A stretch of DNA of 30,913 nucleotides from Escherichia coli (GCF_003334355.1 NZ_QOWP01000039.1); one strand, 5' to 3'; counted from the stretch's first letter, positions 16,646 to 23,863 are shown. The notes: a model not told the origin generated them from the sequence alone. Made by a program: numbers and translations.

Positions 16646-17121
16646 TTTGCTATTTACACAGTACTCCCTGCGTGAGATTCCAATTATCGCGTCCAGCATG
16701 GTGTATCAGTGAGCTGCTTAGTTATCAGCGATACAGCGCAGTAGTTTAAAGACGTACTGGATTATGATTTATCAGTGGTTTACACAACAAATTATTAAAT
16801 AATTATAAGATACCTTAACCCATTTTATTATTACACATCTAAAACATCACAAAAAAAATCACTTCACACACTATCAGAGAACATAATAACTTTTTAAAAT
16901 GAGCGCATTTTGATAGTTGTTAACGATTTCCTTTACGATACTATCACTACCCTTTTTTTACACACAAATATTACCGGGTGGAGATAAAAGGGAAATCAAA
17001 GGTAATTATATCAGGAAGATATAACGCATTACATTTATTGTGTGTAGAAGAAAATCCATTCCTGTTCTAATTATCCAATTTAAACATCTTAGCATAAAAC
17101 AAATGATGAATAAGGAATTTT

Positions 17122-18345
17122 ATGTCAATTGACTTTACCCCAGGTATAATAAATACATATCACGGCGATATTTATAACTGCACAACAAATACCGATAATG
17201 CTAAAACGCCAGACACACCGAAGTGGCCTTGCGATAATTGGGAAGAACAACAACCCATTAATTCCACATTCTCTGGAGAAGGATATATCTCTGATCAATA
17301 TGATTTAGCGCAACACCAACTTCAACAAATTAATGCGTGCCACACGAACACTACATATACAAATGCAGACTACTCAAAAGTTGTGGCTCAACTTGTAAGT
17401 CTTATTACTAACATTGAAACGATAAGTTCGACACAACTTACGCAACAGACACAATCAATACTTAATCAGATTAATAACATTAGATATGAAAAAAACAAAA
17501 GTGCTGAATGTCGAATCATTGTTGTCGCTAATCCTAAACCCGACAAGGCAATCATAACTAAAATTAGCGTAGAAGAGGGAATACCCATAACATTCAGTGT
17601 CCAAACCATGTTTTCAGATACTAATTTTATTGCTGAACAACGAGCTGACTTACCAACTAATATAAAAGATATTCAAAGCCTGTATCAAAAAATGACGAAG
17701 TTATATATTGAGCACAGTGAAAATAAAAACAGGATGAAAGTCTTTACCGGAACCAACTTTATTGATTTCAATATGACAGGACAGAACCTGTCCGGGTTCG
17801 TTCTAACCTTGTCAAGGTTTTATTTCGAAGATCTACTTAATATAAATTTCACTGACGCAAATTTAGGTGACACTATTTTTTTACATAAAGAACACCCTAC
17901 CCCCAAATTATATAAAGATGGACAATATCTTGACAAACAAATCGAAGGTTTATTTTCAACATTATTAACCATTAATGACAACCTTTTACGAGCAAAAGCG
18001 GAAATTGCTTCGACAATAATTAAATTTTTAGAGGCCAGGATAACCAATCTTTCATACAATGACATATTAAAATATCAGCAAGAATTCCAAAAACAATGTT
18101 ATAAGCAAGTTAAAGCCTTTACGACACTCTCCCGATACAATAAAATTCAAACATGGGCAGAAATGTCTGAATATCAATTCGAAGTATTTCAATACGAGAC
18201 GCTTAACCCCAAAAAAATGTCACACACGCCTTATTTAAAGAGGCCACTGCCTAATGAAAAAGATATAAATTATGGGGTGGAAATAGAAATACCATCTGGT
18301 AAAAGAATTCGCTTATCAAATCATTACCAGAATATAATACCATAA
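17122..18345 (+). CDS. yhiS: Uncharacterized protein YhiS, intact 407-aa form with a pentapeptide-repeat-like segment
   Basis: Continuous 407-aa ORF in a strongly AT-rich region. Residues around [23 protein letters not shown]...[13 protein letters not shown] show a five-residue periodicity typical of pentapeptide repeats. To my knowledge K-12 carries this gene split by IS5; no IS is present here. Confidence 0.75.
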
Positions 18346-18592
18346 TATTGATTATTAGCACTTTATAATCATTGAATAAAAATAGATTTTATGTACTTTT
18401 AAAACAATGCACTATATTATGGGGTGATGGATATTCATGTCACGCCCCAAAATTAACTGAGTTCACCTAAACAGAAAGGATATAAACATCAGACAGGTTT
18501 ACGTTACTATCAGGCATATCACCTCAGAATCAGATGAAAACTATAAAGAAATATCTATTATGGTTTTAATATTTGTTGATAAGGATAGTAAC

Positions 18593-19159
18593 ATGAACAT
18601 GACAAAAGGTGCACTCATCCTCAGCCTTTCATTTTTGCTTGCCGCATGTAGTTCAATTCCGCAAAATATCAAAGGCAATAACCAACCTGATATTCAAAAA
18701 AGTTTTGTTGCTGTTCATAACCAGCCGGGGTTATATGTTGGTCAACAAGCGCGCTTTGGTGGGAAGGTTATCAACGTTATCAATGGCAAAACGGATACGT
18801 TGTTAGAAATCGCTGTATTACCGTTGGATAGCTATGCGAAGCCTGATATTGAAGCCAACTATCAGGGCCGACTGCTCGCCAGACAAAGCGGCTTCCTTGA
18901 TCCAGTGAACTATCGTAATCACTTTGTTACCATCCTCGGCACCATTCAGGGTGAACAACCTGGCTTTATCAATAAAGTCCCGTATAACTTCCTGGAAGTG
19001 AATATGCAGGGCATCCAGGTGTGGCATTTGAGAGAAGTGGTTAATACCACCTATAACCTGTGGGATTACGGCTATGGTGCATTCTGGCCGGAACCGGGCT
19101 GGGGTGCGCCTTACTACACCAATGCGGTGAGTCAGGTAACACCTGAGCTGGTCAAATAA
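18593..19159 (+). CDS. slp: Starvation-inducible outer membrane lipoprotein Slp (188 aa)
   Basis: I place the start at ATG 18593 (MNMTKGALILSLSFLLAACSS, lipobox LAAC) with RBS AAGGA upstream; recognised as Slp. Confidence 0.85.
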   Translation: MNMTKGALILSLSFLLAACSSIPQNIKGNNQPDIQKSFVAVHNQPGLYVGQQARFGGKVINVINGKTDTLLEIAVLPLDSYAKPDIEANYQGRLLARQSGFLDPVNYRNHFVTILGTIQGEQPGFINKVPYNFLEVNMQGIQVWHLREVVNTTYNLWDYGYGAFWPEPGWGAPYYTNAVSQVTPELVK

Positions 19160-19314
19160 CACCACCGAAAGATGCAGATGCTTTCTCAGCATCTGCATCA
19201 TGCATTACATCAAATTAATACACAGTAAGCTAACTATTATTATTATAAGCCCTGTCCTGTTAATTACCTTTGGCAAACTGATTATAAAGTTAATGTCCGC
19301 ACCAGGAGTCGGTT

Positions 19315-19845
19315 ATGTTTCTTATAATTACCAGGGATACGATGTTCTTCACCGCGATGAAAAACATTCTGAGTAAAGGTAATGTCGTTCATATACAGAA
19401 CGAAGAAGAGATCGACGTAATGTTGCATCAGAATGCCTTCGTCATTATTGATACATTAATGAATAATGTATTTCATTCTAATTTTCTCACTCAAATTGAA
19501 CGATTAAAACCTGTCCATGTCATTATTTTCTCCCCCTTTAATATTAAACGCTGCCTGGGGAAAGTGCCGGTGACCTTTGTTCCGCGGACTATCACTATCA
19601 TTGATTTTGTCGCACTCATCAATGGCAGTTACTGCTCTGTGCCTGAAGCGGCTGTGTCACTTTCGCGCAAGCAACATCAGGTTCTGAGCTGCATTGCGAA
19701 TCAAATGACAACGGAAGATATTCTGGAGAAACTGAAAATATCGCTAAAAACGTTCTACTGCCATAAACACAATATCATGATGATCCTCAATCTTAAGCGG
19801 ATCAATGAGCTGGTACGCCATCAGCATATTGATTATCTGGTGTGA
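19315..19845 (+). CDS. dctR: LuxR-family regulator DctR/YhiF (176 aa)
   Basis: 176-aa ORF with a C-terminal LuxR-type HTH; AGGAG RBS at 19304-19308; recognised as DctR. Confidence 0.9.
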   Translation: MFLIITRDTMFFTAMKNILSKGNVVHIQNEEEIDVMLHQNAFVIIDTLMNNVFHSNFLTQIERLKPVHVIIFSPFNIKRCLGKVPVTFVPRTITIIDFVALINGSYCSVPEAAVSLSRKQHQVLSCIANQMTTEDILEKLKISLKTFYCHKHNIMMILNLKRINELVRHQHIDYLV

Positions 19846-19886
19846 ATTTCAGGCTTACGGTGAGTCTGGCTACGCTGCCACACAGA

Positions 19887-22249: not shown

Positions 22250-22611
22250 ATTAATACTCTCTCCGCTACGCAGTGTTGTAGATCAATTGCGCACTATCAT
22301 TGAAATAATAACCTGCTAGTGATTATTTCAACCTACTGAATTTCATCTAATTTTTTTCACTCCATGGCAAATTAGCCATTTCAAACATTATCATGGCTGA
22401 TATTTTCCGTAGTCAGGTTTAATGTTTTAAAAGTGCTGTGGGAAAGTGAACAAAGAGTTCCGTAAGCGTTGATGCTATGGGCGGTTAAATAAGTAATCCG
22501 GGTTCATTTTTTTGCAACTGGCGTTGATTACATTGCATAAATATCCGTGTCTCCAGACGCTATATAAAAACCTGAAGACATGAATGCGTTATTTACTCAG
22601 GTAATTTCAAT

Positions 22612-22690
22612 GCGTTAAAAGAAAGCTGGCAATCCAATTGCCAGCTTAAGTCGAAACAAGGAGACTCGATATTTAAATCGGATTACATTT
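22612..22690 (-). ncRNA. Candidate antisense small RNA in the gadE leader (possibly ArrS); only the 3' terminator is supported
   Basis: 10-bp stem agctggcaat / attgccagct (22624-22646) which, read on the minus strand, is followed by ttcttttaac. This is an intrinsic-terminator signature for a minus-strand transcript ending near 22614. The 5' end is a guess. Confidence 0.25.
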
Positions 22691-22813
22691 TAACTTTAGT
22701 AATATTCTTCAGAGATCACAAACTGGTTATTGATAACTTATTCTTGGGCAGTAATCCGCAAACGTTAACTTTTTGTTTGCTATTTACAAGCTGATAACAA
22801 CCAGGAATCTTAC

Positions 22814-22833
22814 TTAGGATCAATATATGGAGT
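22814..22833 (+). promoter_or_regulatory. Candidate GAD box (GadE/GadX/GadW binding site) in the gadE promoter region
   Basis: ttaggatcaatatatggagt begins with the TTAGGAT core of the GAD box consensus as I recall it (TTAGGATTTTGTTATTTAAA) and sits about 185 nt upstream of the gadE ATG. Confidence 0.3.
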
Positions 22834-22997
22834 GCGTGATGGATAAATCTGAAGTATTGATTAGTGTTAATAGACGTATTAGTTCGCGAAGGGTAAAGTT
22901 CTTATAGGCGTTTACTATATTGAACAACGATTCGGACAAGGATGTAAATAATGAAAAGGATGACATATTCGAAACGATAACGGCTAAGGAGCAAGTT

Positions 22998-23525
22998 ATG
23001 ATTTTTCTCATGACGAAAGATTCTTTTCTTTTACAGGGCTTTTGGCAGTTGAAAGATAATCACGAAATGATAAAAATCAATTCCCTGTCAGAGATCAAAA
23101 AAGTAGGCAATAAACCCTTCAAGGTTATCATTGATACCTATCACAATCATATCCTTGATGAAGAAGCGATTAAATTTCTGGAGAAATTAGATGCCGAGAG
23201 AATTATTGTTTTGGCACCTTATCACATCAGTAAACTAAAAGCTAAAGCGCCTATTTATTTTGTTAGCCGCAAAGAAAGTATCAAAAATCTTCTTGAGATT
23301 ACTTATGGTAAACACTTGCCCCATAAGAATTCACAATTATGTTTTTCACATAATCAGTTCAAAATTATGCAACTGATTCTGAAAAATAAAAATGAAAGCA
23401 ATATCACGTCGACGCTCAATATTTCGCAACAAACATTAAAGATTCAGAAATTCAACATTATGTACAAGCTGAAACTAAGACGTATGAGCGACATCGTCAC
23501 CCTGGGTATCACATCTTATTTTTAG
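22998..23525 (+). CDS. gadE: Acid-resistance transcriptional activator GadE (LuxR family, 175 aa)
   Basis: I place the start at ATG 22998 (MIFLMTKDSFLLQGFWQLKD...), with RBS AAGGAG at 22986-22991; the six-frame ORF starts 26 codons earlier. Confidence 0.9.
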   Translation: MIFLMTKDSFLLQGFWQLKDNHEMIKINSLSEIKKVGNKPFKVIIDTYHNHILDEEAIKFLEKLDAERIIVLAPYHISKLKAKAPIYFVSRKESIKNLLEITYGKHLPHKNSQLCFSHNQFKIMQLILKNKNESNITSTLNISQQTLKIQKFNIMYKLKLRRMSDIVTLGITSYF

Positions 23526-23863
23526 TCAGGACATAAGCAACTGAAATTGATGGCTGGCATGACGAGGGATGCAGATGCTGATTTCATTACCCCCGGTGAT
23601 TACTAAAGGAGAGGCTAAAACGACTTTATTCCCCTGGTATGTGTATCCACCAGTAGAACCCTTCGTTGCCCGAATGCTGGCAGGAACTGTTGGCAGAACG
23701 GCAACATTTTTTTTGTCGTTGACCTCACCATGTCGATCACTGTGCCTGTATCCCACCTTACTGGCTGACAACCCCACTATGCCGCTGGTCTGTAAATCCC
23801 TCATATCTCTCCTCGCGCGCAATTTAAAGAACCGTTATTTCTCAAGAATTTTCAGGGACTAAA

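Follow-up and report, generated by a model that had tools for sequence, protein, structure and literature searches.

The AT-rich tract between arsC and mdtE of Escherichia coli: acid fitness island DNA beside a yhiS module

Why does the base composition of an Escherichia coli chromosome fall sharply between the ars genes and mdtEF, and is the DNA in between one foreign island set between native flanks? The question is raised by a stretch of 30,913 nucleotides (NZ_QOWP01000039.1), referred to here as the window, whose coordinates are counted from its first letter. An earlier note had described 16650-23860 as a long AT-rich island, running from yhiS through gadE between GC-normal ars and mdtEF genes, and had taken it for the horizontally acquired, H-NS-silenced acid fitness island (AFI). 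We consider it very probable (about 0.9) that this tract is the left AT-rich half of the E. coli AFI together with an adjoining yhiS module that was acquired separately. The AFI part would consist of slp-dctR, yhiD-hdeBA, hdeD, the 798-bp gadE control region and gadE. Both parts would lie within an Escherichia-specific insertion of ~19 kb at the gor-(ccp)-treF junction, which would hold dinQ/agrAB, arsRBC, yhiS and the AFI through gadA. The insertion appears to be a compositional mosaic in which regulatory and chaperone modules are AT-rich (GC content 0.33-0.43) and pump and enzyme modules GC-normal. As a whole the tract is already known, well-studied biology of the H-NS-silenced AFI.

Composition and layout of the tract

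The drop in GC content that the earlier note had read by eye is confirmed by measurement. The interval 16650-23860 has a GC of 0.388, against 0.516 in the left flank (751-16649), 0.534 over the ars genes (14745-16500) and 0.533 over mdtEF (23861-28200). When the sequence is cut into non-overlapping 500-bp intervals, the 14 inside the block average 0.385 (0.314-0.468) and the 39 in the flanks 0.520 (0.436-0.604), a difference with a Mann-Whitney p of 1.9e-7, and the profile is anything but flat. Composition does step at both ends of the block, as had been claimed, but not at the borders given. If the 30.9-kb window is divided only once, the likelihood is highest for a cut at 16576 (gain 86 nats), and recursive likelihood segmentation places change-points at 16576, 18607, 22294, 23551 and 28092. 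The left edge is therefore ~75 bp before 16650 and the right edge ~300 bp before 23860. On the right, GC recovery starts at the gadE stop codon (23525; change-point 23551), and the gadE-mdtE spacer already stands at 0.47. Inside, the block is heterogeneous and falls into three segments with GC of 0.329 (16576-18607), 0.428 and 0.340, with steps at 18607 and 22294.

The window is identical to K-12-type chromosomes over this region (100% in a megablast search of 16000-24500 against 5,426 complete E. coli genomes), and gene names were taken from the RefSeq annotation of genomes 99.9-100% identical to it. The genes run in the order arsRBC, yhiS, slp, dctR, yhiD, hdeB, hdeA, hdeD, gadE, mdtE, mdtF, gadW, gadX, with the following features:

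16494-17121: arsC-yhiS spacer, 628 bp, GC 0.355
16495-18475: yhiS module (arsC-yhiS spacer, yhiS and most of the yhiS-slp spacer), GC ~0.33, the most AT-rich sub-block
16540-16645: pair of repetitive extragenic palindromic (REP) units, resembling a bacterial interspersed mosaic element, just 3' of arsC; marks the left composition change-point
17122-18345, plus strand: yhiS, 407 amino acids, GC 0.339, third-position GC 0.30
18476-18592, plus strand: slp upstream region, left edge of the segment common to E. albertii and L007
18593-19159, plus strand: slp, GC 0.460
19315-19845, plus strand: dctR (yhiF), GC 0.397
19846-19886: convergent dctR/yhiD spacer, 41 bp, the chu insertion site in many strains
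19887-20534, minus strand: yhiD, hdeAB-yhiD operon
20598-20924, minus strand: hdeB, hdeAB-yhiD operon
21040-21372, minus strand: hdeA, hdeAB-yhiD operon
from 21373: divergent hdeA/hdeD promoter spacer, 254 bp, GC 0.331
21627-22199, plus strand: hdeD (RefSeq annotation)
22200-22997, plus strand: gadE regulatory region (hdeD-gadE spacer), 798 bp, GC 0.362
22998-23525, plus strand: gadE, LuxR-type master activator, GC 0.330, second-position GC 0.227
23864-28159, plus strand: mdtE and mdtF, GC-normal (0.53), inside the island
28093-30913, minus strand: second AT-rich block (gadW, GadY, gadX), GC 0.401

The REP pair, the named genes and the long spacers of about 630 and 800 bp that the earlier note had listed are all there, the spacers at 628 and 798 bp. 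The first REP unit spans 16540-16577, with palindromic arms at 16540-16556 and 16561-16577, and the second, inverted, spans ~16611-16645. The yhiS-slp spacer has a GC of 0.287.

GC at third codon positions (GC3) is 0.30 in yhiS, 0.36 in hdeA, 0.39 in hdeB and 0.40 in gadE, with slp, dctR, yhiD and hdeD between 0.46 and 0.55; the flank genes mostly lie at 0.54-0.65 (uspB 0.49), so the drop extends into coding sequence and is not confined to spacers. First and second positions (GC1 and GC2) are lowered too, with GC2 at 0.227 in gadE and 0.260 in dctR. A codon-usage comparison, proposed in the earlier note as a check, pointed the same way: the index of codon match to backbone genes is 0.57 for the island and 0.66 for the backbone (p = 0.011), with yhiS (0.43) and gadX at the extremes.

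Distribution and mosaic structure at the gor-treF junction

The AFI has been defined as running from slp to gadA, and its gain has been dated to the Escherichia stem, later than the branching of E. fergusonii but earlier than that of E. albertii (PMC5799925); the primary references are Hommais et al. 2004, Mates et al. 2007 and Tramonti et al. 2008, as cited within PMC5799925 and PMC4918353. The full gene set and order slp-dctR/yhiD-hdeB-hdeA/hdeD/gadE-mdtE-mdtF/gadW/gadX is present in the window, with content and orientation identical to the AFI from slp to gadX, and the 798-bp gadE promoter, GadY and the gadE-mdtEF operon are all found, in DNA 99.9-100% identical to K-12 genomes. The chromosomal site, between gor/ars and ccp (yhjA)/treF, is also that of the AFI. 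The window stops before gadA, which follows gadX in the 99.9%-identical genome L001. Where the two differ is in extent: the interval of the earlier note adds yhiS and its spacers and omits mdtEF, gadW, gadX and gadA. Its island is thus correct for the genes from slp to gadE, but yhiS falls outside the AFI, and mdtEF and gadW-gadX had been left out.

To follow the distribution of these genes, 26 marker proteins were mapped onto 80 Enterobacteriaceae gor loci, one genome per species, each with up to 10 kb on either side of gor (shorter in some contigs). Fifteen ars, yhiS and AFI genes were searched for in these stretches of up to 10 kb downstream of gor, and none occurs in any of the 78 non-Escherichia loci, which come from Citrobacter, Salmonella enterica subsp. 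arizonae, Enterobacter, Klebsiella, Kluyvera, Kosakonia, Leclercia, Pantoea and others. It follows that the stretch from the gor terminator to gadA (18.9 kb with a GC of 0.452 in L001) is Escherichia-specific at this site. The two Escherichia loci among the 80, E. albertii and the divergent genome E69 (L007), carry slp-dctR-chuA downstream of gor. Most of the others have gor, then 0.2-9 kb of differing cargo, then (ccp-)treF-yhjB-rcdB where the contig is long enough; treF begins 186 bp past gor in Enterobacter hormaechei, and ccp begins 88 bp past it in one Citrobacter locus. The earlier note had expected the island to be absent from Salmonella; in S. enterica subsp. arizonae the site has no AFI genes and holds unrelated cargo: an asparaginase, a Dcu transporter, a fructoselysine-kinase-like gene, a deglycase-like gene and a GntR regulator. 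The gor-treF junction is an integration hot spot shared by several genera, with genus-dependent cargo and nested modules. This phyletic absence and the published H-NS data discussed below bear out the description of the tract as a horizontally acquired, H-NS-silenced AFI.

Low GC might instead have arisen in place, by AT-biased mutation under weak selection or by selection for H-NS- or promoter-like sites, an explanation that we regard as improbable. It would suit the spacers, which are the most AT-rich parts (0.29-0.36), and the proposal that a surplus of promoters and of AT builds up in the recipient after transfer (PMC3661553). It would equally suit the highly expressed hdeA and hdeB, whose codon index is near-native and which are free of rare codons, and the synonymous divergence (dS) of slp and dctR from E. 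albertii, roughly double that of the backbone, a level that low codon bias would lead one to expect. What tells against it is that GC1 and GC2 are depressed and the amino-acid composition is shifted as well, and that the orthologues in E. albertii and L007 are equally low in GC, so the low GC predates their split. Moreover, sister genera lack these genes downstream of gor, whatever the composition of the genes. Evolution in place would account for the maintenance of AT-richness, not for the origin of the genes, and may help to explain why the spacers are so AT-rich. Dating the acquisition from the raised dS of slp and dctR was tried and rejected, since low codon bias alone is able to produce it.

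It is far less probable again that the region is ancestral to the Enterobacteriaceae and was lost in every genus save Escherichia and Shigella. The junction is variable in many genera, so deletions do occur there, but many independent losses would be needed to clear all 15 genes from every one of the 78 loci; the atypical composition and codon usage, and the published reconstruction that puts the gain on the Escherichia stem, also argue against an ancestral origin.

Acquisition of the AFI with a separate yhiS module, the reading that we prefer, draws on the internal structure of the insertion. Window homology in L007 ends at 16494 and restarts at 18476, with ars present and 16495-18475 gone. 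In E. albertii (L003) homology restarts at 18476 too, 117 bp upstream of slp, and both ars and yhiS are missing. The module delimited in this way matches the position of the most AT-rich composition segment (16576-18607). The proposition that yhiS is part of the AFI failed, the definition beginning at slp and the module being missing from two lineages that bear slp-dctR. The yhiS module, in which yhiS is the only gene, is a separate indel outside the published AFI. What the window has in common with E. albertii and L007 begins at 18476, which is therefore the functional left border of the AFI.

Across the insertion, modules of regulators and chaperones, which are AT-rich, take turns with pump and enzyme modules of normal GC (gadA 0.54, mdtEF 0.53 and, where present, chu 0.50), and atypical composition with sporadic phyletic distribution holds for the AT-rich modules only. 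The mdtEF genes are co-transcribed with gadE as one operon, gadE-mdtEF (PMC3708157), and are followed by the AT-rich gadW-gadX-(gadA), with everything lying within the published island; mdtEF is a GC-normal module of the island, not a native flank. On the other side, ars is missing downstream of gor in E. albertii and, within the distance searched, in other genera, and hence being GC-normal is not equal to being ancestral at this locus. The view of ars and mdtEF as native flanks of the island has to be given up on both counts. Island borders here are not where the GC steps occur, and mdtEF, gadA and ars, for all their normal GC, are no less restricted to the lineage than the AT-rich parts. That 16650-23860 is one island gained in a single event between native ars and mdtEF, a very remote prospect for which the sharp composition steps at both ends might speak, is refuted by the gor-locus survey, the AFI definition and the independent absence of the yhiS module from two Escherichia lineages, and sits badly with the three internal composition segments.

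Several further insertions were observed at the same locus. In E. albertii L003, a HigA-family antitoxin gene and an adjacent open reading frame (ORF) of 100 amino acids, which has no family match, replace ars/yhiS between gor and slp (9795-10507), so the cargo downstream of gor differs even within the genus. In O104:H4 and ET201, the arsC-yhiS spacer contains an extra ArsR/SmtB-like gene and a permease, ~1.6 kb (L084, 1128-2544; L085, 1265-3799). K-12 is without these two genes and keeps only their edges, with the junction at ~16706/16772 (window 16640-16772). The spacer of ET201 also contains the insertion sequence IS621, with arsC on one side and the ArsR-like gene on the other. Among the 5,426 complete genomes, 2,277 have no contiguous match across the block, and all five that were sampled break at ~19882. 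In L083, chuS...ATPase lies between dctR and yhiD, as part of a 9-kb chu haem-uptake locus with a GC of 0.50 (L083, 4943-14005).

Silencing by H-NS and regulatory density

Published work places H-NS over much of this DNA. Competitive gel shifts showed that H-NS binds the gadE, gadW and slp-dctR promoters; H-NS also controls hdeAB and hdeD directly (PMC2984483). The 798-bp gadE promoter carries a broad H-NS peak in chromatin immunoprecipitation (ChIP), and ArcA takes over there under anaerobiosis; this 'sensory integration' region has transcription starts at -21, -124, -324/-317 and -566 and is a site of H-NS/ArcA antagonism (PMC3708157). Panyukov and Ozoline (2013, PMC3661553) list 78 'promoter islands', which include the arsC/yhiS and insH11/slp spacers, both H-NS-bound, and arsC/yhiS is H-NS-bound in all the ChIP studies of their Table 1. 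In a recent preprint, ChIP-qPCR and chromosome conformation capture (3C), used alongside Micro-C, support an H-NS-dependent hairpin at the hdeAB promoter; the same preprint names slp-dctR and yhiS as StpA high-affinity sites. In vivo protein occupancy display at high resolution (IPOD-HR) revealed an occupancy domain of ~5 kb over hdeAB-yhiD/hdeD/arrS/gadEF that is lost in the stpA hns double deletion. This domain has been called 'dynamic', as occupancy yields to local activators in some media.

The tract differs in nothing of kind from the extended protein occupancy domains (EPODs) of H-NS/StpA-silenced xenogeneic DNA. It shares with them kilobases of GC below the flank average; hdeAB-yhiD/hdeD/arrS/gadEF, slp-dctR and yhiS are also published as occupied by H-NS/StpA and as derepressed when hns and stpA are mutated. 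For this particular sequence, H-NS occupancy is predicted from composition. In the mechanism established by the cited papers, carried over to this sequence from its composition, the AT-rich DNA, long spacers above all, would nucleate H-NS/StpA filaments and bridges, which would keep the promoters silent in exponential growth at neutral pH. At the long integration regions, H-NS would then be driven off or overruled by dedicated activators, with EvgA-YdeO acting on GadE, joined by GadX/GadW, RcsB-GadE, ArcA and RpoS, and the small RNAs (sRNAs) GadY, ArrS and GadF would supply post-transcriptional control. The locus is a textbook case of domesticated foreign AT-rich DNA, in which H-NS silence is combined with layered activators and sRNAs for survival at stomach pH.

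Searches for targeting signals in the sequence gave counts that composition explains. Promoter-like sites number 26 in the 7.4-kb block and 4 in an equal length of flank (6.5 times denser), but shuffles that preserve dinucleotides yield 24.6 +/- 4.6 and 5.4 +/- 2.4, respectively, and both match the observed values. The tract therefore resembles the 'promoter islands' (PMC3661553) in its dense promoter-like sites, with the difference that the excess here is a by-product of composition and adds no signal of its own. The earlier note had held that the island explains an unusual regulatory density; taken as promoter-like sites, that density is fully accounted for by base composition, and we rejected it as an independent signal. 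The high-affinity H-NS 10-mer (TCGATAAATT-like, with up to 2 mismatches allowed) occurs 18 times in the block, against 15.8 +/- 3.7 in shuffles, and is not enriched; its density is ~2 times that of the backbone, equal to the shuffle expectation, and it is not a strict defining feature of the H-NS-silenced class. A scan with the GAD box, a 20-mer, gave its best matches in the hdeA/hdeD spacer (21478 and 21531), without significant enrichment (6-23% of shuffles reach the observed count).

A further AT-rich segment was observed at window positions 1-2063 (GC 0.413; 0.31-0.35 in the first 750 bp), covering the yhiL/yhiM spacer and yhiM. The spacer is an H-NS-bound promoter island (PMC3661553), and yhiM has been published as an H-NS-repressed acid-resistance gene. 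This makes it a second acid-related H-NS-bound locus, 16 kb to the left of the island.

Several observations weigh against reading the tract as AFI DNA with an acquired yhiS module. The absence of AFI genes from other genera covers up to 10 kb downstream of gor and does not extend elsewhere in those genomes. The GC of mdtEF, gadA and ars is native-like, so composition alone is unable to prove that the whole insertion is foreign. H-NS occupancy comes from the literature, and because the 10-mer and the promoter-like sites are no commoner than in composition-matched shuffles, the sequence itself holds no evidence of H-NS targeting beyond AT-richness. Signs of mobility are missing: the 30.9-kb window has no gene for transfer RNA (tRNA) or transfer-messenger RNA (tmRNA), no integrase is among the annotated genes at the locus, and no direct repeats bracket either the gor-ccp insertion or the AT-rich block. 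Nor was a donor identified, and no search was aimed at GadE or MdtE donors.

With classical mobile islands such as the locus of enterocyte effacement (LEE) and pathogenicity island 2 of Salmonella (SPI-2), the tract has in common its atypical composition, its restriction to a lineage and H-NS silencing with dedicated counter-silencers. It differs from them in being without tRNA, integrase or attachment (att)-like repeats, in its mosaic of modules of differing GC and in its nested later insertions (chu, IS5, IS621). The acquisition is old, and no machinery for mobility is left.

Parts of the island were also seen on plasmids. An hdeAB pair with 79% DNA identity lies on 62-kb E. albertii plasmids, where its neighbours are dnaE and genes for an HNH endonuclease and a 5'-3' exonuclease; the set is phage-plasmid-like in appearance. 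Large plasmids of Citrobacter, Klebsiella, Kosakonia and Salmonella carry hdeB alone. The plasmid regions concerned are L087 (E. albertii p2014C-4015-1) 6001-6746 and L086 6847-7098. Single modules do therefore travel. In 50,697 phage records there was no match to hdeAB.

The yhiS gene and minor features of the window

In the window yhiS is intact (407 codons), whereas MG1655-type records have it split by IS5 (~17868). YhiS has no significant family match in Pfam, NCBIfam, PADLOC or PHROG. All named homologues among 5.8 billion proteins are from E. coli or Shigella, and when 1.84 billion 50%-identity cluster representatives were searched exhaustively with HMMER, a single full-length one came back. 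The other matches were gene fragments and pentapeptide-repeat proteins, the latter over residues ~202-256. A profile built from YhiS alleles matches such proteins over the same residues with E values of 1e-8 to 1e-4, and one of them, P0150, was confirmed as PF00805, the Pfam family by which tandem A(D/N)LXX repeats are recognised. The same profile matches PDB entry 2f3l at E = 0.0045, while the Pfam search gave PF00805 only at E = 7.3. Residues ~202-256 weakly resemble pentapeptide repeats. The AlphaFold2 model, with a mean predicted local distance difference test (pLDDT) score of 54 and values below 50 across the pentapeptide-like part, was too poor for a fold search.

Within the species, yhiS varies far more than its surroundings. 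It is detectable in 5,417 of the 5,426 genomes but at least 80% covered in 3,998 only, and in 1,825 of the 5,417 it is less than 95% identical to K-12 at the DNA level; taken over the full 8.5 kb of the region, identity reaches 95% or more in nearly all genomes. The alleles, all at one fixed locus, form deeply diverged classes with amino-acid identity as low as 64-78%, and some are apparently recombinant. Between K-12 and ET201, in both of which the ORF is intact, identity is 77.9% (dN 0.119, dS 0.272, dN/dS 0.44), while the neighbouring genes have a nonsynonymous divergence (dN) of 0.007 or less. The gene has been inactivated repeatedly across genomes by IS5, IS1, frameshifts and truncations. 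We offer tentatively, as a rather unlikely account, that the yhiS alleles are kept by diversifying or balancing selection, for example through phage or host interaction; yhiS may also be decaying H-NS-silenced junk under relaxed constraint. No discussion of this polymorphism was found in the literature searched, and the divergence within the species is one loose thread for specialists.

The remaining features of the window are as follows:

5075-5115: ES036 (CssrF) sRNA, Rfam, 42 bits (threshold 37.6), downstream of pitA and near uspB
13894-13977 and 14125-14208: two AgrB-family copies, Rfam, within 114-nt repeats
23643-23714, plus strand: ES205 sRNA in the gadE-mdtE spacer, Rfam RF02754, 105 bits (gathering threshold 86)
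28522-29250, minus strand: gadW, second AT-rich block
29493-29606, plus strand: GadY sRNA, Rfam, 150 bits
29618-30442, minus strand: gadX, second AT-rich block

The ES205 match is probably the published gadE 3' sRNA GadF, which the IPOD-HR literature names as part of a gadEF operon. On the opposite strand, overlapping it, RefSeq (PGAP) annotates a 92-amino-acid 'hypothetical protein' (23526-23804, minus strand), antisense in the gadE-mdtE spacer, which has no PHROG match and is probably an over-annotation. To the left of the block, RefSeq gives the gene order yhiM, yhiN, pitA, uspB, uspA, dtpB, rsmJ, prlC, rlmJ, gor, then dinQ/agrAB. The gor-arsR spacer (13483-14358, 876 bp) contains the dinQ toxin gene and the two 114-nt direct repeats, which are 88% identical; E. 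albertii keeps this spacer up to ~13993 only.

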